A DNA stretch of 64,000 bases from Deltaproteobacteria bacterium (GCA_034670305.1 JAXMNT010000001.1:32001-96000), one strand, 5' to 3'. Positions 19,575 to 30,580 are shown, numbered from the stretch's first letter. Made by a program: numbers and translations. The notes: generated by a model not told the origin, from the letters alone.

Positions 19575-22331
19575 TCATCGCGGGGGGCAGGTGAGGGCGC
19601 CGGTGACGAAGACGCCGTTGTTCGGGTCCGTGTAGGCGAACCTCGGCTGGCCGTCGACGCTGAACGCGCCGCTGACCCGCGCGTTGGGCGGGCTGTCCTG
19701 GGTCAGCTGCACTGCGCACGGGTTGTTGCACATCTCTTCGGCGCTCGGGAAACACTCGGAGCAGCCGGTCGTGCGCGCGGGTTCGCCGTCGTGCACGGTC
19801 GCGGTGCGCATGAAGAGGCGGGCTTCGGTCGCGGTGCTGAGGTGCGCGAAGACCACGCGCCATCCGCCCGGCTGTTCCACGACGCTGTCGCCGCGCATGG
19901 TGCCCAGCGTCAGCACACCGTCCGGCACGTACACGAGCGATGGCGCGCCGAGTAGCGGCTCGCGGTGGCTCATGTGCGTGACCGGTGCGATGGCGCGCAC
20001 GCCGGTCGGGGTGAGGACCTCGTCGCATCCGACGACGCCGCAGGTGCCGCCGCCACCGGCGCATTCGCACTCGGTGTGGAAGGTGACGCTGGTGAAGCCG
20101 ATGCGCTGACCCATCTCGCTGATCTCGCGCCAGGCGACGCCCATCACGACGCCGTCGCGGCTGGCGGGACCAACCGCCATCACGAGGTCTTCGATCTGCG
20201 CGTCCGGGAGCGGGCCGTCGCCGCCGGGCACGAGCTCGAGCGGGTCGGTGGCCAGGCACTGGCGGATCGACTCGGGCGACCGCTGGGTCTGCGTGAGGCT
20301 CTCCTTGTTGCCGGGCTCGCTGTCTGGACGTCGCCGGTCACGGGTGGTCGGGGTGCCTTCGTCGATGGTGCCGTCGCAGTCGTCGTCGATCCCGTTGCAG
20401 TCCTCGGTGGGGTTCGCGACGCACGCCTCGGTGCAGCCGTTGTCCAGGATGCCGTTGCAGTCGTCGTCCTGGCCGTTGCACAGCTCCGGCTGAGGTCCGA
20501 CGTCGCCCATGCAGATCGTGCGGCCGGCGAAACATTGCCAGGTGCCCTGCGAGCACTCTCCGGTGCTGCTGCCGCAGGCGTCGCCTTCGGTGTTCTCGTC
20601 GGTCATGCCGTCGCAGTCGTCGTCGAGGCCGTTGCACATGTCCGCGCCGGTCTCGTCGCCGGTGGTCGGCACGCAGTCGTCGGTGCAGTTGGTCTCGTCG
20701 ACGCCGCCGTCGCAGTCCTCGTCGACCCCGTTCGCGCAGAGTTCCGGCTGGGGCATGACGGCGCCGTCGCAGTACACCTCGCCGCCATCGCAGCGGAAGG
20801 TGCCGGAGACGCAGGCGCCGATTTCGATGCCGCAGCTCGTCTCGCCACACACCGAGGGTTGAGCGGCCGTGTCGGACACACACATCTGAGACTCGTCGCC
20901 GGCCGGCTCGCACATCTGCGCGGCCACGAGACGCGCGTCCGGAATCGCGAGCAGGTGGATCCGGAGTCGGCCTTCCTGCTCGGATGCGACCGCGTAGGTC
21001 TCGCCGATGGCGGCGATGCCGGGTGCGGTGGTCGAACGGGTCTGCCCGAGCACGGTGGGCTCGCCCTCACCACTCACGTTGACGAAACGGATGCGGTTGG
21101 AGGCTGCGGTCTGCAGATGGGCGCCCCAGACGAGCACGTCGTGCAGCGACTCGTCTTCTTCCGTGCCGCTGAGGTCTTCGGTGATGCAGCGGCCGAGCGC
21201 ATGCGATCCCGAGACGGCGGCCACGACCGCCTCCACGTCCACGTCGGCCTGGTCGCCCGGGAGCGCTGCGAGGGCGATGTCCTTCACGCCGCACGCATGG
21301 CTGATCGCGACCTGCGCGCTGGACGAACAACTGCCGCACAGACACTGCACGGCATTGGGGCTGTCGCACTCGCTCATCGAGTTGCAGCTCTGCGGTTCGC
21401 AGCGGCCGCCGTTGCACGTCTGGGCGTGCGGGCATTGCGCGTCGGATGCACAGGTGGACGGGACGCACGCGCCGCGGACGCAGCGTTCGCTGCCGGCGCA
21501 GGTCGGGCAGCCCTGGGTCTCGAAGGCCACCGCGAGCTGGGCCGCTTCGCAGCGGTCGGTGTCGGCGGCGGAGCATCGCCCGTTGTGGGTCAGCGAGACC
21601 CCCGCGAATGCATTCGAGCGTCCGGACGGTCCGAGGTTGAAGATCTCGGTGCCGGCTTCGTAGTGGCCGATTCGGAGCTGGCCCTGCACGCACCGGGCCG
21701 AGGAGACCGACGCGGCGATGCCGCTGTCGCCGGCCATGCCCACTTCGAGCTGCGCGAAGTTGCAGTTGCCCTCGGTGGGCACGATGCCGGTGATGGGGGT
21801 GTCCATCGCGCCGGTTCCGTCGCGGTTGATGCCCCAGCAGCCGGGCTCTTCCGTCGGCCCCGCTTCGACATCGTTGCTCTCGTTCTTCACGTAGTTGGCG
21901 CGTACTGGCGCGGGGAGTTCCCCCGACACCGGGAGGACCACGGCGAGCGCGTCCGCTTCGGTCCACAGGGCCCGCACGGAGGTCGCGCCTTCGGCGAACG
22001 TGATGCCGGTCGGTGTGCCGAGGATCAGATCGGCCCGTCGAATGTCGGACACCGGGTCCGCGCCTTCGTCGCTGTTGCCGTCGCAGTCGTTGTCGGCTCC
22101 GTCGCAGATCTCTTCGTCGCTGCGCACACACTGTCCGTCGAGGCAGCGCCAAGGCCGGCAGGCGGCCGGCAGGCCGAACGACCCGTTGAGCGCGTCGGCG
22201 CAGGCTTGTTCGAACTCACCCTGGGTGGTGCCGAACTCGTCGCAGCGGTCGAACTCGTCGAGCCCGAGGACGCTGCAGCCCGCCAGAAGCGCGAGCGCGG
22301 GAAGAACCATCGTCGTTTGCAAACGGCGCAT
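19575..22331 (-). CDS. Large Cys-rich lipoprotein with MopE-like (putative metal-binding) repeats
   Basis: Lipobox LAGC; repeats EICDGADNDCDG, ELCANGVDEDCDG, MCNGLDDDCDG, ELCNGQDDDCNG, EDCNGIDDDCDGTIDE. Confidence 0.82.
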   Translation of the reverse strand: MRRLQTTMVLPALALLAGCSVLGLDEFDRCDEFGTTQGEFEQACADALNGSFGLPAACRPWRCLDGQCVRSDEEICDGADNDCDGNSDEGADPVSDIRRADLILGTPTGITFAEGATSVRALWTEADALAVVLPVSGELPAPVRANYVKNESNDVEAGPTEEPGCWGINRDGTGAMDTPITGIVPTEGNCNFAQLEVGMAGDSGIAASVSSARCVQGQLRIGHYEAGTEIFNLGPSGRSNAFAGVSLTHNGRCSAADTDRCEAAQLAVAFETQGCPTCAGSERCVRGACVPSTCASDAQCPHAQTCNGGRCEPQSCNSMSECDSPNAVQCLCGSCSSSAQVAISHACGVKDIALAALPGDQADVDVEAVVAAVSGSHALGRCITEDLSGTEEDESLHDVLVWGAHLQTAASNRIRFVNVSGEGEPTVLGQTRSTTAPGIAAIGETYAVASEQEGRLRIHLLAIPDARLVAAQMCEPAGDESQMCVSDTAAQPSVCGETSCGIEIGACVSGTFRCDGGEVYCDGAVMPQPELCANGVDEDCDGGVDETNCTDDCVPTTGDETGADMCNGLDDDCDGMTDENTEGDACGSSTGECSQGTWQCFAGRTICMGDVGPQPELCNGQDDDCNGILDNGCTEACVANPTEDCNGIDDDCDGTIDEGTPTTRDRRRPDSEPGNKESLTQTQRSPESIRQCLATDPLELVPGGDGPLPDAQIEDLVMAVGPASRDGVVMGVAWREISEMGQRIGFTSVTFHTECECAGGGGTCGVVGCDEVLTPTGVRAIAPVTHMSHREPLLGAPSLVYVPDGVLTLGTMRGDSVVEQPGGWRVVFAHLSTATEARLFMRTATVHDGEPARTTGCSECFPSAEEMCNNPCAVQLTQDSPPNARVSGAFSVDGQPRFAYTDPNNGVFVTGALTCPPR

Positions 22332-23359
22332 CAGAACGACCCTCCGAGCGAGAGGCCGGCGGCGGTGCGGGAGACGATCGGCGCGACCTGGAGCCGGAGC
22401 CGCGCTTCGGCCTCGTCGGTCGAGATCGCGTTCGGGTCTTCTTCGTCGTCCCAGTCGGTCAAGACCGCGAAGATGATGGCGGTCGTCGCAAGCAAGGCCG
22501 CGGTGCCGAAGAGGATGTCCGCGTTGCGGGCGTTGCGCTGGATCGAGTCGACCTCGTCGGCGGTCGCGAGCCGCGGCGAGCGACCGTCCGGTTCGTTGCC
22601 CTTGTTGAGCGCGACCAGGCCGAACGCCATCCCGCCGAGCGCCGCACCGACCGCCGCACCCGCGGTGACCCAGAACAGGACCGGCGGCAGCCCTTCGTAT
22701 TCTTCCGCCAGCCGCTCGAGCTCGAACGTGGCGGTCGCCTCCGACTGGGCGGCGACCTGAACTTCTTGTTGCTCCGGCGTGTACCCGTCGGAGCGGATCT
22801 CGACGACGTGCGCGCCACCCGGCACCAGGATCTCGGTCTGGTTCTCACCGATGCGGCGGGAGTCGACCCAGACTTCGTAGTTGCGGAGGTTCACCGTGAT
22901 GCGGACGGTTCCGAGCAGACCGTTGAGCAGCTCGATCTTCGCCCGCACATCGGCGGCGTGGTCGGTGAACGCGCCGCCTTCTTCCAGGAACGAGGCGTAC
23001 GACGCCATCGCTTCGCTGTAACGGAACAGGCGCTCCTGGCAGCGGGCGATGTTGTAGAGCACGAGGAAGCGGAGCTGGTGGCCTCGGAGCAACTCGCGGG
23101 TCGTGTTGAACTCGGCGAGCGCGGCTTCGTAGTTGTTCTCTTCGTACAGGGCTTCGCCCCGCGCGATGCGCTCGCGCGCTTCGGCGATGCGCGGGTCCTC
23201 CGCGGGTTCCTCCGCGGCGGGTGCTTCGGCTTCCGCCTCCACATCCGCGGCTTCGCCGGCAGCACCCTCTTCTCCAACGGGCTCCTGTGCCATCGCCAAC
23301 GAGCCAACGCTCATCCACCACAGCAAGAGAAGTCCGCGCCCCATTCGACGTCCCATCAC
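22331..23359 (-). CDS. TPR + PEGA domain protein
   Basis: Signal peptide, ARGEALYEENNYEAALAEF...LYNIARCQERL, PEGA-like GGAHVVEIRSDGY, C-terminal GLSLGGSF; coupled to the downstream lipoprotein gene. Confidence 0.82.
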   Translation of the reverse strand: MMGRRMGRGLLLLWWMSVGSLAMAQEPVGEEGAAGEAADVEAEAEAPAAEEPAEDPRIAEARERIARGEALYEENNYEAALAEFNTTRELLRGHQLRFLVLYNIARCQERLFRYSEAMASYASFLEEGGAFTDHAADVRAKIELLNGLLGTVRITVNLRNYEVWVDSRRIGENQTEILVPGGAHVVEIRSDGYTPEQQEVQVAAQSEATATFELERLAEEYEGLPPVLFWVTAGAAVGAALGGMAFGLVALNKGNEPDGRSPRLATADEVDSIQRNARNADILFGTAALLATTAIIFAVLTDWDDEEDPNAISTDEAEARLRLQVAPIVSRTAAGLSLGGSF

Positions 23360-23483
23360 CCGCGCACTTTACCGGAAAGCCGCGGAAGATGGGCGCTCTT
23401 GCCGCTCGCATTCCGCTTGGCTCGAAACGGGGAGAAACGCTCCGAACCAAAGCCACAAAACGGAGCCACATGTGTTCGAGCCG

Positions 23484-24272
23484 CTAGTAACGGTGAATTC
23501 CGGCGGAATCGATGCGCAGCAGGGCGAGGTCGCCGCGTTGTTCGAGGCGGCCTTCGATCCGGACCGGTTCGGCGACGTAGGAGAGGACCTCGGGTCCAAG
23601 CGGTCCACCCTCGGCGTTCGCGAGCAGCAGATGGGTCTCAGTGCCCTCTGCGTCGCGGGTCACAAGCACCGGCGCGATGCCGCCTCGGATGCAGAGCTGT
23701 GCGCAGCCCCGGTGGGCGCGCCCGTCGCCTGGCCGCATCTGACCGTAGAAGCACTTGCTGTCGACGATCTCTCCAGACACTTCGATCGACGCGCCCGTGA
23801 GGACCGATGGTGCCTCGTTCAAACGTGTGAGCGCGGCCTCCGACAACGCGGCGTCGGCGGCGCCACCGCTCACCACCAAGAGTGCGCCGCCGTTGCGGGC
23901 GAAGAGCCGACCGCGCAGCTCGGTGGGTTGTCCGTCTCGGTCGGCGTAGCTCTCCCCGAGGCCGGACTTCCAAGCGCGCGCGGTCAACACGGTGAAGAGC
24001 GCGCCATCCGCGCCCACGGTGCGCAAGTGCGGGTAGGGCGACTGCACGAAGAGGCCTTGCAAGGTGACCTGTCGACCGGCTTCGAGCCCTTCGCCCGGGT
24101 GGCGTTGAAAGACCGCACCCGAGGCCGCGATCGACGCCGCGGCGACGACGAGCCCGCCGGCCAGCAGAAGGGAGAAACGTTTGAGCTTGGGCGGGGTCGG
24201 CAGGTAGCCGACGAAGAACTCGTCGCTGGGCTGGAGCGGCTCGAGGGCCGGATCGTCGGGCGCGTCGCTCAT
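23484..24272 (-). CDS. Conserved-looking membrane-anchored hypothetical protein with DSKC...HxxCAxxCIxGG motif
   Basis: ATG at 24272 overlaps the upstream TGA (ATGA); DEFFVGYLP, TM helix, GEIVDSKCFYGQMRPGDGRAHRGCAQLCIRGGIAP. Confidence 0.78.
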   Translation of the reverse strand: MSDAPDDPALEPLQPSDEFFVGYLPTPPKLKRFSLLLAGGLVVAAASIAASGAVFQRHPGEGLEAGRQVTLQGLFVQSPYPHLRTVGADGALFTVLTARAWKSGLGESYADRDGQPTELRGRLFARNGGALLVVSGGAADAALSEAALTRLNEAPSVLTGASIEVSGEIVDSKCFYGQMRPGDGRAHRGCAQLCIRGGIAPVLVTRDAEGTETHLLLANAEGGPLGPEVLSYVAEPVRIEGRLEQRGDLALLRIDSAGIHRY

Positions 24273-25360
24273 GAGGGCTCCTCCCGGGCGAGACGCGCGA
24301 CGGCGACATCGAACTCGGCGGGTGCGGTGGCGGTGCCGGGCGCGAGCGCGACCGGACGCACCAGAATGCGCCCGTCTTTCAACCGCACTTCGTAGGTGGG
24401 GATCTTCTCGGTGAATGGCGGCGGCGACTGACCGTCTTCGGGCCGGTACTGCCATCCATGCCACGGGCAGGTGAGCGATCCGTCGATCACCTTGCCCTCG
24501 TAGAGCGGTCCGTTCTGGTGGGCGCAGTGTCCGTGCAGCGCGGCGACCTTGCCTTGCCATCGCACGACGGCGATGCGCTCATGGCCCGGAATGCACAGCG
24601 CGCGCGCCCGCCCCTCCGGGATGTCCTCCGGCCGGCCCGCGTCGACGTAGCGTTCGCCGTCGAACTCGACCCACGCGACCTCCTCGCGCTCGCAGGCCAA
24701 GGAGCGGCGGGCCGCGAGCAAATGCAGCCCGCCGACCAGCACGACGCTGCCGAAGACGAGCGCTGCGTTCATCGGATGCGGCTCCGACTTCATCAATCCG
24801 AACGCCACGTGCAGGACCGCGAGCGCGAACACCAAGTAGACGCCCATGTGGAGGGTCTTCCACGCGGCCGGACCGATGGTCCTCTGCCAGAAGTCGTGGC
24901 TGGTCGCGGCCATCACCGCCAAATACAGCAGCGCCGCGAGGCCGAAGAGTGGGAAGGGCCACGAGGCGCCGGTGAACTCGTTGTCGCTCAGAAAGAGCGC
25001 GCTGACCCGGTCCAGATCGCCGGTGTAGTTGTAGTAGTACCCGAGCACCGTGTTCGCGTGCATCGCCGCCACGAAGAACATCAGCACCCCGAAGTGCCGC
25101 CGGTTGTAGAGCAGCGGAATGAACTTCGGGCTCAGGCGCGCGAGCGGTCCGATGCAGAGGATCAGGGTCAGCATCAGAAACGCGCAGCTGCCCCACGCGC
25201 GCATCGAGACGATCTGTCCGGTCAACACCCCGTCGCCGGAATGCAGCCAGCGGGTCACGACCCCGAAGAGCACGATGTAGATCGCCACCGCCACGACGAC
25301 GATGGCGTCGTAGAAGATCTTGCGCGCGGTCCACTGCACCGGGACGTACTGCGTGCTCAT
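24269..25360 (-). CDS. Ferric-reductase/MsrQ-like heme-b membrane domain fused to a Rieske [2Fe-2S] domain
   Basis: About 6 TM helices with RRHFG, AMH, WKTLH and VLH histidines; Rieske CAH...CPWHGW. Confidence 0.88.
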   Translation of the reverse strand: MSTQYVPVQWTARKIFYDAIVVVAVAIYIVLFGVVTRWLHSGDGVLTGQIVSMRAWGSCAFLMLTLILCIGPLARLSPKFIPLLYNRRHFGVLMFFVAAMHANTVLGYYYNYTGDLDRVSALFLSDNEFTGASWPFPLFGLAALLYLAVMAATSHDFWQRTIGPAAWKTLHMGVYLVFALAVLHVAFGLMKSEPHPMNAALVFGSVVLVGGLHLLAARRSLACEREEVAWVEFDGERYVDAGRPEDIPEGRARALCIPGHERIAVVRWQGKVAALHGHCAHQNGPLYEGKVIDGSLTCPWHGWQYRPEDGQSPPPFTEKIPTYEVRLKDGRILVRPVALAPGTATAPAEFDVAVARLAREEPS

Positions 25361-25370
25361 CGGCGCGGCC

Positions 25371-25523
25371 TCATCGGGCCGCCTCTGGGCGACGGGCTTG
25401 CAGCGGACTCGGCTCGGCCGGGGCCTGGCTCGGCATCGACGCGGCCCAGCCACACAGAGCCAGCAGCGCCGGCAGCAGCAGCCACCAGACGAGCGCGTGG
25501 GCTTTTCGTTGCGGCCGGATCAC
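25371..25523 (-). CDS. Small membrane protein (50 aa)
   Basis: GTG overlapping the upstream TGA (GTGA); MIRPQRKAHALVWWLLLPALLALCGWAA. Confidence 0.62.
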   Translation of the reverse strand: MIRPQRKAHALVWWLLLPALLALCGWAASMPSQAPAEPSPLQARRPEAAR

Positions 25524-25720
25524 GACGGAGCACCGCGGACCCAGCGCCAAGCGATCACCGGCCAGAGCAGCGCACAGGAAGGAAGGATCAGCACGCGGAA
25601 GAGCATCGAACTCCCCGCGCCGGCCGGGTCGACCCGTGGCAACCCGACCGCGAGGAACGCGAGCGCGACGAGCAGACCGAAGCCCATCCATCCCGCCGCA
25701 GCGTGGAGCATCCACGCCAT
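25520..25720 (-). CDS. Small two-TM membrane protein (66 aa)
   Basis: ATG 2 bp after the upstream stop; GFGLLVALAFLAVGLPRVDPAGAGSSMLFRVLILPSCALLWP. Confidence 0.68.
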   Translation of the reverse strand: MAWMLHAAAGWMGFGLLVALAFLAVGLPRVDPAGAGSSMLFRVLILPSCALLWPVIAWRWVRGAPS

Positions 25721-25722
25721 GA

Positions 25723-27348
25723 TCAGAGCGGGGTCATGCCGGCGTATCGCACGCCCGTGAGGTGCGCGATGTCCCGCTTCCAGGTCGTGAGATCGTCCAC
25801 GCAGAGTTTCGCGAGGGCGTCGTGTCCACAGGCGCGCGCCAGGATCTTCATGAGCTCGACCGTGGCCTCGAAGTAGCGGGCGAGGCGCTGCGCCGAGTGC
25901 TTCACGTCCAGGCGCTCGCGCAAGTGCGGCTTCTGGGTCGCGATGCCCACCGGGCAGTTGTTGCTGTGGCAGGCCCGCATGCCGAGGCACCCGATCGCCT
26001 GCAACGCCGAGTTCGACACCGCGACCGCGTCGGCGCCGAGCGCCATCGCTTTGACGAAGTCCGCCTCGGTGCGAAGCCCGCCGGTCACCACCAGGGTCAC
26101 GTCCGACGCGCCGCAGGCGTCGAGGTGTCTGCGGGCGCGGGGCAACGCAGCGAGCGTCGGCACCGAGATGTTCTGCTTGAAGATCTCGGGCGCCGCGCCG
26201 GTGCCGCCGCCACGCCCGTCGAGGATCACGTAATCCGCGCCGACCGCCAGGCAGAAGTCGAGGTCGCGCTCGATGTGTTGGGCGCTGAGCTTGAATCCGA
26301 CCGGGATGCCGCCCGAGGTCTCGCGGACTTGTGCCGCGATCTCCTGGAAGCCCGCGACTCCGTGAATGTCCGGAAAGGTCGAAGGGCTGATCGCCGCTTT
26401 CCCGGGCGGGAGTTTGCGGACCTCGGCGATCTTGCCTTGGACCTTCTCGCCTGGGAGGTGTCCCCCGGTGCCGGTCTTGGCGCCCTGGCCGCCCTTGAAG
26501 TGAAACGCCTGCACCTTCTTCACGAGCTGCAGATCCCAGCCGAAACGCGCGCTCGCGAGCTCGTAGAAGTAGCGGCTGTTCTCGGCTTGTTCTTCCGGCA
26601 GCATACCGCCTTCGCCGGAGCAGATGCCGGTGCCCGCCAGCTCTGCGCCCATCGAAAGCGCGGTCTTCGCTTCTTCGCTCAACGCGCCGAAGCTCATGTC
26701 GCTCACGAAGATGGGGATCTCGAGGCTCAGCGGCTTCTTCGCGCGCGGTCCGATGACCACCGAGGTCGCGACCGGTGCGTCGTCGAGCCGCGGCTGCTTC
26801 CACATCTGCGCCGTCACGATCTGGATGTCCTGCCAGCGCGGAAGTTCGGTCAGCGCGACGCCCATCGCGCTCGTCTCGCCGTGGTGGCCGGTGCGCGAGA
26901 GGCCGTGTTCGGCGAGCTCGTGAATGTGTTTGGCGTAGGGCTCCGCCGACGTGCCGTGGTGGTCGGCGTACAGACCCAGGTAGGTCTTGCGGTCGTAGGG
27001 CTGCGGGTTGTCGACGGCCCACGTCCGGATCTCCGCTTCATCGACGAACACGGCGTCGCCGTCGATCCAGGCGCGGAACTTGTGGAGCACTTCTTTGGAG
27101 TCGTAGGCGCTCACCCCGGTCGCGACCCGGTAGTCCCACTGGTGCACGCCGCAGATGAGGTCGTCCCCCTTCACGAAGCCGTCCGCCATCAGCGCGCCGC
27201 GGTGCAAGCAGCGCCCGTACAGCACACTCACGTCGTCGTCGTAGCGCACCACGACCAGGTCGACGTTGGCGACCAGCGCGTACGTCGGCGTGCGGTCTTC
27301 GAGGGTCGACCACGTGGCGACCTCGACCGGCTTTCTTTCCGTCCCCAT
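25723..27348 (-). CDS. Rieske domain + FMN-binding glutamate synthase-type (GltB2/GlxD-like) protein
   Basis: Rieske CLH...CGVH; SDMSFGALS, SGEGGM, KGGQGAKTGTGGHLPG, DGRGGGTGAAP, TGGLRT, KAMALGAD; [3Fe-4S]-type CLGMRACHSNNCPVGIATQ; RBS GAGGAG. Confidence 0.9.
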   Translation of the reverse strand: MGTERKPVEVATWSTLEDRTPTYALVANVDLVVVRYDDDVSVLYGRCLHRGALMADGFVKGDDLICGVHQWDYRVATGVSAYDSKEVLHKFRAWIDGDAVFVDEAEIRTWAVDNPQPYDRKTYLGLYADHHGTSAEPYAKHIHELAEHGLSRTGHHGETSAMGVALTELPRWQDIQIVTAQMWKQPRLDDAPVATSVVIGPRAKKPLSLEIPIFVSDMSFGALSEEAKTALSMGAELAGTGICSGEGGMLPEEQAENSRYFYELASARFGWDLQLVKKVQAFHFKGGQGAKTGTGGHLPGEKVQGKIAEVRKLPPGKAAISPSTFPDIHGVAGFQEIAAQVRETSGGIPVGFKLSAQHIERDLDFCLAVGADYVILDGRGGGTGAAPEIFKQNISVPTLAALPRARRHLDACGASDVTLVVTGGLRTEADFVKAMALGADAVAVSNSALQAIGCLGMRACHSNNCPVGIATQKPHLRERLDVKHSAQRLARYFEATVELMKILARACGHDALAKLCVDDLTTWKRDIAHLTGVRYAGMTPL

Positions 27349-27498
27349 CTCAGCTCCTCTTCAGACGAGCGATGGTACGCGGACTGGTCGATCGCGTTAC
27401 GGATTCCTTGGCATAGCAGGTGGCCGCTGAGCGCCGCGTCTGCGAAGGCGGCCGCCTAGCCGATTGCCCTTCGATCCGGCCCAGCCTCCGAGAGGAGA

Positions 27499-29043
27499 TC
27501 ACTCGATCTGGACGATCACGCCTTCGCTCTCGACGCCTCGGCGGTCGATGGCGCTCAGGGCCCATTCGCCCGGCTCCAGGCCGACACCGGTCCCTTCTTC
27601 CGAACCGGCGGGGACGAGCCGATCGAGCGTGAAGACGCCGGGTTCGATCGCGCCGTACACGCCGACGTAGCGCAGCGGGGACGCGTGGGTGACGGTGGCG
27701 ATGGCGCCGTCGATCCGCACCGCCGGGGGGGCGAGGGTCGCGCCGAACGCATCGGCGATCGGCGGCGTGGCGGCGGGGACGACGTAGTGGTTTTGCAGCA
27801 CCTCCGCGATCTCCGGTGCGCGGCCGTCGAGCGGCGCGACGTGGAAGTACAGGTTGCCCTCCACCCCGGGGGCTTCGCGCGTCATGCGGAGTTGGGTCCG
27901 CAGCTCGTCGAGATCCCAGGCGGTCTCCGTGCCGACCTTCGAGAGGTAGTTGCCGATGAAGATGAGTCGGCCCTCGGTGGCCAGCGCGCCCCACCACTGC
28001 GCGAGTGGCTCGTAGGCTTGGCGGGTCTGGGTGGACGGCCAGTAGAGTTGCGGCGCGAGGTAGTCGACCCAGCCGTTGCGGATCCACAGCGGCGGGTCCG
28101 CGTAGATGCTGGCGTATTGATCGAGTCCAGTGATGCCTTCGGGCATGCCGGGCCGGTAGATGCCGAACGGTGAGATCCCCCAGCGGACCGTGGGCGCGAC
28201 TTCGCGCACGATCTCCGCGATGCGTTCAACCAGGTGGTTGACGTTGTCGCGTCGCCAGTCGCCTCGGTCGAGCGTGCCGCCCCCGGACCGGTAGGCATCG
28301 AACGAGTCGTCGTCGGGAAACGGCCCGTCGGGGTAGGGGTAGAAGTAGTCGTCGAAGTGCAGCCCATCGACGTCGTATCGGGTCAGCACGTCGCGAATCA
28401 CCGCGAGCGTGTGGTCTTGTACCGCCTCGGCCCCGGGATCCATCCAGAGCAGATCCCCGTAGCGGATCATGTGTTCGGAGAGCGTGACCGCGGCGTGCGG
28501 TGCGACCGCGGTCGAGGACGCGCTGGCTTTGGCGCGGTACGGGTTCATCCAGGCGTGCAGTTCGAGTCCGCGCGCGTGCGCCATCCGAATGGCGGTCTCG
28601 AGCGGGTCCCAGCCCGGGGCGACGCCCTGGGTGCCGGAGAGGAAGCGGCTCCACGGTTCGAGCTCCGATGGGTAGAACGCGTCGCCTTCCGGTCGCACCT
28701 GCAGGAACACCGCGTTGAGTCCCGCGTTGGCCGCGTCGTCCATCCGGGCTTCGAGTTCGCTTCGCTGGGCTTCGGCGGACAGCCCCGTGCGACTCGGCCA
28801 GTTGATGTTGTAGACGGACGCGATCCAGCCGCCCCGCATCTCGCGCGCGTGGCCGACCCGCACGGTCTCCTGGTCGAGCGCGTCGGCGGAGGCGTCGCGT
28901 TCCTCGCCGCCGGAGTCCAAGGCTTCGTCTCCGGTGTCCGTGGACCCATCGACGGCCGCATCGCGCGCGGCGGCGTCGGGGCCGGGAGGGGTGGAACCGC
29001 ACGCGAGCGCGAACAAGAGACCCAAGGGGATGACGAGTTTCAC
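27499..29043 (-). CDS. GHL10/DUF187 glycoside hydrolase lipoprotein (YddW/DigH-like)
   Basis: Lipobox LAC; EMRGGWIASVYNINWPS, NAVFLQVRP, ELHAWMNPYR, YDVDGLHFDDYFYPY, WGISPFGI, DYLAPQLYW. Confidence 0.9.
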   Translation of the reverse strand: MKLVIPLGLLFALACGSTPPGPDAAARDAAVDGSTDTGDEALDSGGEERDASADALDQETVRVGHAREMRGGWIASVYNINWPSRTGLSAEAQRSELEARMDDAANAGLNAVFLQVRPEGDAFYPSELEPWSRFLSGTQGVAPGWDPLETAIRMAHARGLELHAWMNPYRAKASASSTAVAPHAAVTLSEHMIRYGDLLWMDPGAEAVQDHTLAVIRDVLTRYDVDGLHFDDYFYPYPDGPFPDDDSFDAYRSGGGTLDRGDWRRDNVNHLVERIAEIVREVAPTVRWGISPFGIYRPGMPEGITGLDQYASIYADPPLWIRNGWVDYLAPQLYWPSTQTRQAYEPLAQWWGALATEGRLIFIGNYLSKVGTETAWDLDELRTQLRMTREAPGVEGNLYFHVAPLDGRAPEIAEVLQNHYVVPAATPPIADAFGATLAPPAVRIDGAIATVTHASPLRYVGVYGAIEPGVFTLDRLVPAGSEEGTGVGLEPGEWALSAIDRRGVESEGVIVQIE

Positions 29044-29224
29044 GCCAGGCAGGTTTGCACACCCCGTGCCCCCGCGCGCGCCGACCGTCGCCGTGCGGTT
29101 CGTGGTTCGGCAGGCCCCGGCCACGCGCCGCCACGGACACAACCGCACACCTGCTCGGCGGTGGTGTTCAGGAGTTGAGCAGTCGGCGCGTAACATCTTT
29201 GTGCGAGCACGGTAGGGTTGCGGA

Positions 29225-30580
29225 ATGGGCACCCCGGCCAGCGCTGAACCGCACGAAGACGGCTGGGGAGGCGTGTCGACTGAACCTCCACCCGCGGCGT
29301 GGTCGGACGCGGTCCACGCGCTGCTGGGTCACCGCGCGACCCTGGTCGGGTGCATCGACGCGGTCCGCGCGGCCTCGCCGGAGTTCGTTCCGGCCCGCTG
29401 CGTCCAGGGATTCGGGCTGCTGTTCAAGGGGCGCGTCGAGCTGCGCGGGCGGGCACTTCGTCTGGCGGACGAGGTCGCGCCTCTGTGCCGAACCCCGCGC
29501 GAACAGTTGCTCGTGGCCGCGATCCGAGCTTGGGCGAACGACGACGCCTTGGGTGCGCTGCGCGCCTTGCGCGAGATCCTGGAGCGGCACCCAACCGACG
29601 CGCTGACGATCAAAGTGCACCACGGGCTCGCCTTCTTATACGGCGACCGCGTGGCGATGCTCGGCGCGCTCGAAGGGGTGGCGACGGCGTGGTCCGATGC
29701 GACGCCTGGCAGCGGGTACATGCACGGATGCCACGCGTTCGCGCTCTGCGAAGACGGACAGTTCGAGCGGTCCGAAGCGGTGGGGCGGCGCGCGGTCGAA
29801 CTCGAACCCAGCGACGCCTGGGGCATTCACGCCGTCTCGCACAGTTTCGAGATGCGGGACCGGCCGGAGGTTGCCGCGCAATGGCTCGATGCACATCGGG
29901 CCGGGTACGACGGATGTTCGGTCTTCCGCGGGCACGTGTACTGGCACCGCGCGATGATCGACTGCGAGCTCGGCCGTCCGCGCGACGCGCTCGCGCTGTA
30001 CGACGCGCACGTGGCGCGGCCCTGGGTCGGCGACTACCGGGACATGAGCAACTGCACGACGCTGCTCTGGCGGCTCGAGTCCGATGGCATCGACGTGGGC
30101 GACCGCTGGGTCGGTCTCGCGGAGATCGCCGCGACGTTCGGGCTCGACCACGGCTCGGCGTTCGCGGATGCCCACTACGCGCTGGCGCTCCGCCAGGCCG
30201 GGGATCCCGCGCCGATGCGGGCCTCGCTCGCGGCCCACTGCGCCGAAGACGCGACCGGTGCGCAGCGTGCGGTGCAGCGAGAGGTCGGCGCGCCGTTGGT
30301 CGAAGCGATCGCACTTGGGCCGAGCGAACCGGCGCGCAGTTTCGAAAAGCTCGTGCGGTTGCAGAAGCACCTGGTGCGGATGGGCGGAAGCAACGCGCAG
30401 CGCGATGTGTTCGAGCTCATCCGGCTCCAGGCCGCGCTCGACGGGGGCCAGCGCGCGCCAGAGACCCTGCGACGAGCGCAACGGGCGCTGCGCCAACGGC
30501 TGGGGGAGCGTCCCGGTCACCAGTGGGCGAAACAACGCGTGGCGCCAGGCTCGCACCACGAAGCGGGCATCCTCGCCTGA
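29225..30580 (+). CDS. TTC38-like tetratricopeptide repeat protein
   Basis: HPTDAL, GCHAFALCE, DAWGIHAVSHSFEM, HVYWHRA, LLWRLE, FADAH, MGGSNAQRDVF. Confidence 0.85.
   Translation: MGTPASAEPHEDGWGGVSTEPPPAAWSDAVHALLGHRATLVGCIDAVRAASPEFVPARCVQGFGLLFKGRVELRGRALRLADEVAPLCRTPREQLLVAAIRAWANDDALGALRALREILERHPTDALTIKVHHGLAFLYGDRVAMLGALEGVATAWSDATPGSGYMHGCHAFALCEDGQFERSEAVGRRAVELEPSDAWGIHAVSHSFEMRDRPEVAAQWLDAHRAGYDGCSVFRGHVYWHRAMIDCELGRPRDALALYDAHVARPWVGDYRDMSNCTTLLWRLESDGIDVGDRWVGLAEIAATFGLDHGSAFADAHYALALRQAGDPAPMRASLAAHCAEDATGAQRAVQREVGAPLVEAIALGPSEPARSFEKLVRLQKHLVRMGGSNAQRDVFELIRLQAALDGGQRAPETLRRAQRALRQRLGERPGHQWAKQRVAPGSHHEAGILA

Follow-up and report, generated by a model that had tools for sequence, protein, structure and literature searches.

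A widespread four-gene membrane unit, probably an MsrQ-type electron conduit with a new periplasmic partner, and a Rieske-FMN enzyme as its probable facultative client

Within a stretch of 64,000 nucleotides from a Deltaproteobacteria bacterium (GCA_034670305.1, JAXMNT010000001.1:32001-96000), which was analysed over its whole length and is referred to here as the window, five co-directional open reading frames (ORFs), g1 to g5, occupy positions 23484-27348 of the minus strand. We found that four of them, g2-g5, form a conserved unit. This unit is genuine, occurs widely and is uncharacterised, and it probably works as an MsrQ-type module that moves electrons across the membrane to a periplasmic partner of a new kind. 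The remaining gene, g1, which codes for a Rieske-flavin mononucleotide (FMN)-[3Fe-4S] enzyme, is not part of this unit and is probably a facultative client enzyme of it. We propose, with a probability of roughly 60%, that g2-g5 act as a transmembrane electron conduit and that g1 is a flavoenzyme client, which exchanges electrons with g4.

A first-pass annotation of the window, made from the DNA sequence alone, had described five tightly packed genes at this position. Coordinates and junctions taken straight from the sequence agree with that description in full, and the genes are the following:

25723-27348, minus strand: g1, 541 amino acids; Rieske [2Fe-2S] protein with a glutamate synthase (GltS)-type FMN/[3Fe-4S] domain, presumably cytoplasmic
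25520-25720, minus strand: g2, 66 amino acids; two-helix membrane protein, core subunit, undescribed family
25371-25523, minus strand: g3, 50 amino acids, GTG start; single-helix membrane protein with an N-terminal R-x-x-H-x3-W ahead of the helix
24269-25360, minus strand: g4, 363 amino acids; putative six-helix MsrQ-type ferric reductase domain (FRD) flavocytochrome b with a C-terminal Rieske domain
23484-24272, minus strand: g5, 262 amino acids; bitopic protein with two periplasmic barrels, putatively of the OB-fold (oligonucleotide/oligosaccharide-binding fold) type, proposed terminal redox site

The TGA stop codon of g1 is followed after a 2-bp gap by the ATG of g2, g2 and g3 overlap in GTGA, g3 and g4 are 10 bp apart, and g4 and g5 overlap in ATGA. 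The G+C content of the window is about 69%. The domains that had been read from the sequence, a Rieske domain with an FMN and [3Fe-4S] part in g1 and a ferric-reductase-like domain with a second Rieske domain in g4, were recovered with Pfam, and g2, g3 and g5 have no family match at all in Pfam or NCBIfam.

Protein relatives of g5 are without exception annotated as 'hypothetical' and come from metagenome-assembled genomes (MAGs) of several phyla. To define the unit, we carried out a pattern scan with the g5 alignment over contigs from one genome per species and kept 80 loci for the analysis of neighbouring genes. The scan confirmed a g5 relative in 591 of 599 matched stretches and hence in no fewer than 591 species, and the record titles name Myxococcota, Acidobacteriota, Planctomycetota, Verrucomicrobiota and Bacteroidota, as well as a Leptospiria MAG and Alpha-, Beta- and Gammaproteobacteria. 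A count over 1.84 billion clusters at 50% identity puts the g5 family at 2899 representatives for E<=1e-3 and 1326 for E<=1e-30. In 79 of the 80 loci, the gene immediately upstream of g5 matches g4, and the remaining locus has just 38 upstream bases. The assumption that all five genes make up one unit did not survive this analysis, as g1 lies inside only 8 of the 80 core loci and the five-gene order is rare among them; the conserved unit is g2-g5.

Judged by their conservation, the two tiny ORFs g2 and g3 are real genes, because tblastn matches to g2 are found upstream of g4 in 65 of the 80 loci and, of the 64 loci in which the interval from g2 to g4 was inspected, 56 hold a separate g3-like ORF with a transmembrane (TM) helix. 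In seven of these 64 loci, g2 reads through to g4 as a g2-g3 fusion, and in one the interval contains neither a g3-like ORF nor a fusion. Residues G15, P47, W53 and P54 of g2 are invariant in 66 sequences, and the family shows the motif 'FR..(I/L)..PG.AALWP'. The g3-like ORFs mostly overlap the g2 stop codon, and 55 of the 56 have an R-x-x-H, as read by us from the output; a long g3 form of about 160 amino acids occurs in Verrucomicrobiota, Bacteroidota and a Leptospiria MAG. The g3 histidine was also considered as an essential heme ligand, an idea that was rejected since the histidine is replaced in the g2-g3 fusion forms read in a by-eye alignment.

The association between g4 and g5 goes beyond gene order, and in-frame g4-g5 fusions are present in three Acidobacteriota loci. 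In addition, we inspected 20 longer g5 relatives drawn from a collection of 5.8 billion proteins. All 20 carry PF00355 (Rieske) and 18 also PF01794 (Ferric_reduct), 18 are 596-614 amino acids long, and no domains beyond those of g4 were detected in this set. The fused proteins continue from the Rieske domain into the g5 N-terminal motif and TM helix, an order to be expected if the Rieske domain is cytoplasmic and the body of g5 periplasmic. Seeming fusions in two further loci (L046 and L082) were artefacts that read through a stop codon and were dropped.

In g4, Pfam finds Ferric_reduct (PF01794, residues 57-182, 42.4 bits against a cut-off of 28) and Rieske (PF00355, residues 240-312, 52.5 bits), and the NCBIfam MsrQ equivalog model NF003831 is matched with 52.5 bits, under its cut-off of 130. 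By our own count on a hydrophobicity profile, g4 has six helices with the N-terminus inside. Because no twin-arginine translocation (Tat) motif is present and the number of TM helices is even, the Rieske domains of g4 and g1 would both be cytoplasmic. For the comparison with MsrQ, we used alignment A2, which contains 42 of 62 usable g4 references and leaves out four references reading through a stop codon (L014, L020, L027 and L069) and one of odd length (L042, 478 amino acids). Across 43 sequences, residues H89, H101, H155, H171, H184, H213, R87, R88, S154 and W167 are invariant and M150 is nearly so. The Rieske ligands C279, H281, C298 and H301, which follow the C-x-H...C-x-x-H pattern, are invariant as well. 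The A2 profile aligns with E. coli MsrQ in hhalign with a probability of 93.9, placing H101 and H184 on the heme ligand pair H91 and H164, R87 and R88 on R77 and R78, and M150, S154, W167 and H171 on L131, S135, W147 and H151. In the text of PMC12525009 available to us, H91 and H164 of MsrQ bind its single, periplasm-side heme, residues R77, R78, L131, S135, W147 and H151 line its FMN pocket, and NOX and DUOX proteins have a heme-ligating histidine at the position of R77. At this inner-heme ligand position of NOX on TM3, g4 has an invariant arginine, R87, and not the histidine of a di-heme protein. Because g4 aligns with MsrQ at the heme ligands and the FMN pocket and has R87 at the NOX ligand position, it probably belongs to the MsrQ type and holds a single heme together with a flavin, not two hemes.

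This differs from the first-pass annotation, in which g4 was a four-histidine cytochrome and which leads to a different model, namely an obligate five-gene unit built around a di-heme protein. The invariance of H89, H101, H171 and H184, which lie 12 residues apart on TM3 and 13 apart on TM5, and the tight packing of the five genes in the window would suit such a model. We nevertheless regard it as improbable, considering the rarity of the five-gene order, the arginine that g4 shares with the one-heme MsrQ at the NOX inner-heme position and the conservation of the FMN-pocket residues.

The g5 protein was modelled with AlphaFold2 (predicted local distance difference test, pLDDT, 89.9) and consists of a cytoplasmic F-x-V-G-Y-L-P motif, a TM helix (residues 28-55) and two beta-barrels (63-147 and 156-262), with a segment, residues 171-198, that interrupts the second barrel behind its first strand. 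The C...HxxCxxxC motif noticed at the outset corresponds to C174, H187, C190 and C194. In a set of 135 representatives, no two of which share more than 50% identity, these four residues are invariant together with D171, M179 and K102. The underlying alignment, A3, comprises 134 of 150 listed representatives, with fused forms, the rows of alignment A1 and two long rows left out. With the g1 and g4 ligands, this means that the proposed histidine and cysteine ligands are invariant in the alignments of all three proteins, a point on which the earlier proposal could have failed. No hit at E<=1 was obtained with the g5 profile against PDB sequences, and the Protein Atlas returned 'hypothetical protein' clusters and one auto-named DUF5666, which give no functional lead. 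Tat export of g5 was considered and rejected, as the basic residues ahead of the helix do not form a consistent twin-arginine motif in alignment A1. Because of the lack of such a motif, g5 would be inserted by the Sec pathway; a pre-assembled Fe-S cluster is then unlikely, and the protein may gain its cofactor outside the cell, in the form of a metal ion or through thiol chemistry.

An alternative view of g5 is that the three cysteines and the histidine form a structural zinc or disulfide element and that the heme electrons pass to O2, forming superoxide as in NOX proteins, to free Fe(III)/Cu(II) in the manner of STEAP and FRE proteins, or to a soluble periplasmic protein recruited by g5. The structural comparisons lend this some support. 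The g5 barrels resemble SSB, PriB, the MCM N-terminal domain and the NlpE C-terminal domain (Z 6-6.7, root-mean-square deviation 2.4-4.0, 67-81 aligned residues), which are generic OB-fold matches with Z values of a middling kind that is frequent among unrelated pairs, and Foldseek returned E values of about 1e-4 with TM-scores of 0.2-0.3. MCM and RPA OB-folds presumably carry zinc motifs at a position similar to that of the g5 segment. The YHS domain (seleno)proteins and peroxiredoxin- or ResA-like proteins encoded near the core in other genomes, described below, could be the true acceptors. Furthermore, relatives within the FRD superfamily reduce metals or O2 directly, according to the portions of PMC3591440 and PMC12525009 at hand. 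On the other hand, M179, D171 and K102 are as invariant as the cysteines and the histidine among the 135 diverse sequences, the segment is predicted to touch the outer loops of g4, and the pairing of g4 with g5 is near-obligate and at times covalent. We therefore consider a purely structural role unlikely and favour the segment as a redox site.

The predicted contact comes from a model of the g4-g5 complex, which gave ipSAE interface scores of 0.85, 0.83 and 0.85 in three runs, with 0.13 for the best of three controls. The mark used here is reached by 58 of 80 solved complexes and by 2 of 110 mismatched pairs. Contacts agreed to at least 81% between the runs, and the partner pLDDT was at least 84. 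The predicted interface comprises g5 residues 19-23, 30-60, 100-103 and 179-197 and, in g4, TM1/2 and residues 43-47, 108-137, 187-201 and 289-302. In the model, the g5 TM helix packs on TM1/TM2 of g4. On the cytoplasmic side, the near-invariant VGY of g5 (residues 19-23) and the second Rieske ligand loop of g4 (289-302) are both part of the interface. On the opposite side, g5 residues 100-103 and the Cys/His/Met segment 179-197 are included, as are g4 residues 43-47, 108-137 and 187-201, by topology periplasmic loops beside the outer heme ligands; pairs of g4 residues 46/47 with g5 residue 180 are among the best-determined contacts. The model thus supports binding of g4 to g5, with the Cys3/His/Met segment placed on the periplasmic loops of g4. 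The first-pass annotation had pictured an electron wire from cytoplasmic Rieske centres through the membrane to an outside Cys/His site, and this idea gains from the near-obligate and sometimes fused g4-g5 pair, its predicted binding and the invariant ligands.

For g1, Pfam reports Rieske (residues 8-78, 40 bits) and Glu_synthase (PF01645, residues 200-508, 298.9 bits). At E<=0.1, only weak TIM-barrel relatives come in addition, with no amidotransferase or GXGXG domain. The score against the NCBIfam GltB model NF008730 is 141.5 at a cut-off of 1047. As noticed before, neither an amidotransferase domain nor GltD is encoded in the operon (Pfam and NCBIfam). The closest solved relatives are the FMN domains of GltS alpha subunits (7mfm, 2vdc, 1ea0 and 1llw; E 8e-38 to 2e-30), and in the alignment with solved GltS proteins g1 retains the motifs GEGG and QGAK.G.GG.LPG.KV. 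No NCBIfam model named MgsC or GlxD is among the 17 hits and no MgsA/B partners are encoded in the operon. Orthologues with 60-77% identity are found in four phyla. In 19 orthologues, 200 of 541 columns are invariant, among them the Rieske ligands C47, H49, C66 and H69 and the [3Fe-4S] motif C454-x5-C460-x4-C465-P. In one relative (G036, C20:730039-731656), the orthologue is split into overlapping frames (residues 5-176 and 175-541) by a frameshift or an assembly error. In seven Myxococcota genomes (G057, G104, G110, G149, G212, G296 and G325), g1 relatives with 59-67% identity align only from residue ~96-133 and lie in frames of 519-564 amino acids, in which another N-terminal domain apparently replaces the Rieske domain.

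Where it accompanies the core, g1 is found either upstream of g2 or downstream of g5, that is, in the orders 1-2-3-4-5 and 2-3-4-5-1, and it adjoins the core in Planctomycetota, Bacteroidota, Gammaproteobacteria and Myxococcota. In a phylum sample of 301 genomes, the core is present in 9 and g1 in 50, and g1 occurs in 7 of the 9 genomes with the core compared with 43 of the 292 without it, a contrast that is indicative only, as these genomes are kin. Of 40 relatives, 5 have the core, 14 a full-length g1 orthologue and 3 both. Five further core-bearing genomes were reached through their loci, and two of these have g1.

A second candidate client was found in other genomes. This Rieske-TPP protein of about 650 amino acids has an N-terminal Rieske domain followed by three thiamine diphosphate (ThDP) domains of the TPP_enzyme families and is of the pyruvate-oxidase type. 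Its gene adjoins the core and/or g1 in 10 loci, and it is present in 30 of the 301 genomes of the phylum sample (5 of 9 with the core versus 25 of 292 without) as well as in both of the further core-bearing genomes that have g1. An orthologue was not found in the genome studied here, where the best match is 29% identical and covers the ThDP part only.

These distributions bear on a further possibility, namely that g1 is an independent flavoenzyme, working for example with the Rieske-TPP enzyme or a soluble partner, that its adjacency to the core is accidental and that it exchanges no electrons with g4. The 43 core-less genomes of the phylum sample that have g1 are in line with this, as are the surroundings of g1 where the core is missing, in which no conserved neighbour other than the Rieske-TPP gene was found, and the presence of g1 in 21 of the 30 Rieske-TPP genomes, often side by side with the Rieske-TPP gene. 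In two core-bearing genomes, moreover, g1 lies tens of kb from the core or on a different contig from its pair partner. Set against this are the enrichment of g1 in core-bearing genomes, its position next to the core in four phyla, in either of two gene orders, with a gap of just 2 bp to g2 in the window, and the same kind of NirD/ferredoxin-like Rieske module in g1, g4 and the Rieske-TPP protein. On balance, we think it rather doubtful that g1 acts independently, and keep it as a probable facultative client of the g2-g5 conduit.

In our working model, g4 would hold one b heme near the periplasm, ligated by H101 and H184, and most likely a flavin in a pocket on the cytoplasmic side formed by R87, R88, M150, S154, W167 and H171. 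Its cytoplasmic Rieske [2Fe-2S] domain may take the place of the soluble flavin reductase from which E. coli MsrQ receives its electrons. The g5 protein would be anchored by its single helix on TM1/TM2 of g4, with the VGY motif near the Rieske cluster loops and the segment of three cysteines, histidine and methionine, possibly joined by aspartate and lysine, over the outer heme as the electron exit, and g2 and g3 would be small membrane subunits of the conduit. We picture g1 as a cytoplasmic flavoenzyme built on the 'synthase' domain of glutamate synthase, which probably passes electrons from Rieske domain to Rieske domain to g4. The likeliest start is the oxidation of a substrate at the FMN of g1, with an amino-acid/2-oxoacid couple of the glutamate/2-oxoglutarate type. 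Electrons would then move from the FMN to the [3Fe-4S] cluster and the Rieske centre of g1, on to the Rieske centre, flavin and heme b of g4, and finally through g5 to a periplasmic acceptor.

Flow in the opposite direction could also be envisaged, with the conduit importing periplasmic electrons for the reductive amination of 2-oxoglutarate with ammonia to glutamate at g1. The FMN domain of GltS normally works reductively, as described in the accessible part of PMC8097209, and its motifs are retained in g1. Known FRD proteins, however, carry electrons outward, as far as covered by the available text of PMC12525009, the genome has a separate frame of canonical GltB size (1552 amino acids, G000:C35), and most core loci are without g1, so that we judge an inward flow to be very improbable.

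Several observations weigh against the conduit-and-client model and should be kept in mind. The core does not need g1, nor does g1 need the core: g1 is present in 5 of 49 core loci with at least 6 kb of upstream and 4 kb of downstream sequence, two core-bearing genomes of the phylum sample (G214 and G303, 92% and 93% complete) are without it, both g1 and the Rieske-TPP enzyme are missing from three of the five additional core-bearing genomes, and 11 of the 40 relatives have g1 without g5. Within g4, the invariant H89, two residues past the arginine pair, could ligate a second heme, and the likewise invariant H155 and H213 have, like H89, no assigned role. The Cys/His segment of g5 could be structural, since it occupies a place at which the OB-folds of RPA and MCM presumably hold structural zinc ribbons, and the fold matches include MCM N-terminal domains. 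In addition, the complex score is the model's own confidence and was obtained from our own alignments, and the stress-type neighbours seen at other core loci are absent from this window.

Those neighbours are the following. A secreted YHS domain-containing (seleno)protein is encoded near the core in 22 loci, and 12 of 14 tested match NF041384. In other genomes, 26 loci have DinB_2 genes near the core, 18 have a gene for an extracytoplasmic function (ECF) sigma factor and 7 have one for a zf-HC2 anti-sigma factor. By analogy to MsrPQ, these neighbours hint at envelope redox stress, in which the module might serve periplasmic reductive defence or repair. In many loci of Phycisphaerae and Verrucomicrobiota, the YHS gene follows closely downstream of g5 (L023:8793-9713, L028:8803-9750 and 20 more), and some ORFs of the YHS cluster also match peroxiredoxin, ResA-like or DUF1223 models. 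By the core in 22-26 loci there is a trio of genes for DinB_2, a TANGO2-like protein and a protein of about 390 amino acids without a Pfam match (L028:9788-12269, for example), with ECF sigma and zf-HC2 anti-sigma factor genes frequently close to it.

One might speculate further that g2-g5 represent a new class of electron exporter, in which a Rieske input is built firmly into an MsrQ-like flavocytochrome, Rieske-tagged amino-acid/2-oxoacid flavoenzymes (g1 and the PoxB-like enzyme) feed it directly, bypassing NAD(P)H and quinone, and a new output, g5, with two OB-folds and a Cys3-His-Met centre, reduces envelope targets such as thiol/selenol antioxidant proteins or Cu(II)/Fe(III). We offer this extended version tentatively, as a possibility.

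Within the window, the operon is flanked upstream by a GHL10 glycosidase-like gene and downstream by a gene for a PEGA/tetratricopeptide repeat (TPR) protein, which are unrelated and are not conserved neighbours. A cmscan of positions 22000-30000 for riboswitches and other RNA elements at E<=1 gave one chance-level microRNA match only. A promoter and terminator scan of positions 23000-27800 was uninformative, with no promoter-like site and 3 terminator-like sites against 2.0 expected. On the plus strand, at 29225-30580, lies a TTC38-like, TPR-like protein of 451 amino acids, which has no Pfam hit and is grouped in the Atlas, at 0.98, with 'tetratricopeptide repeat protein 38' clusters. A protein with 35% identity to it (E 2e-55) is encoded within a few kb of the core in seven other loci (L010, L011, L015, L021, L025, L030 and L072), and the gene may be an accessory one in Myxococcota, Acidobacteriota and Planctomycetota. 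Positions 19575-22331 on the minus strand code for a secreted or lipoprotein-like protein of 918 amino acids, rich in repeats of the Cys-x-x-x-D-D-D-C-D-G type, which we take to be typical of Myxococcota surface proteins.

To our knowledge, only few routes bring reducing power to the periplasm, namely DsbD/CcdA, MsrPQ and quinol-linked systems. The g5 family counts about 2900 representatives at 50% identity and has no Pfam entry, solved structure or paper that we could find. Cultured carriers include Rohdeia mirabilis, Gemmata and possibly Phycisphaera mikurensis, a name that appears on a MAG record. Our literature searches returned no paper on the g2-g5/g1 system. Their sole mention is the FRD-Rieske architecture, named 'M4' in a figure legend by Zhang et al., 2013 (PMC3591440), and the portion of that article available to us gives no function, partner or operon for it.

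Among known systems, the closest counterpart is MsrPQ (YedYZ) of E. coli. Like MsrQ, g4 has a six-helix FRD in which the equivalents of the heme ligands and the FMN pocket are kept, and in both cases cytoplasmic electrons would be handed to a dedicated periplasmic partner encoded next door. In contrast to MsrQ, which uses the soluble reductase Fre, g4 has its own cytoplasmic Rieske domain, and two small membrane subunits, g2 and g3, are added. The partners differ as well, g5 being a membrane-anchored Cys/His/Met protein with two putative OB-folds and MsrP a Tat-exported molybdenum cofactor enzyme. No MsrP gene adjoins g4, the gene beside it being g5, which has no Pfam or NCBIfam match; the remainder of the genome was not searched for MsrP. 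With GltS alpha subunits and ferredoxin-dependent GltS (PF01645; 1ea0, 2vdc, 7mfm and 1llw), g1 shares the FMN domain and the [3Fe-4S] motif, whereas the amidotransferase domain, the C-terminal GXGXG domain and the GltD partner are missing and a Rieske domain occupies the N-terminus. Similarly, the Rieske-TPP protein resembles PoxB-type ThDP/FAD pyruvate oxidases in its three TPP_enzyme domains and differs from them in its N-terminal Rieske domain. If our model is correct, it would offer a starting point for understanding the Rieske-GltS and Rieske-PoxB enzymes, which are widespread. STEAP, FRE and NOX proteins also carry electrons outward through a transmembrane FRD, although NOX and FRE systems do so with two hemes and an NADPH/FAD domain. 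Under our model, the MsrQ/STEAP/NOX family would gain a fused Rieske domain supplied by Rieske-tagged metabolic flavoenzymes as a new way in for electrons, and a Cys/His/Met centre on a putative OB-fold as a new way out.

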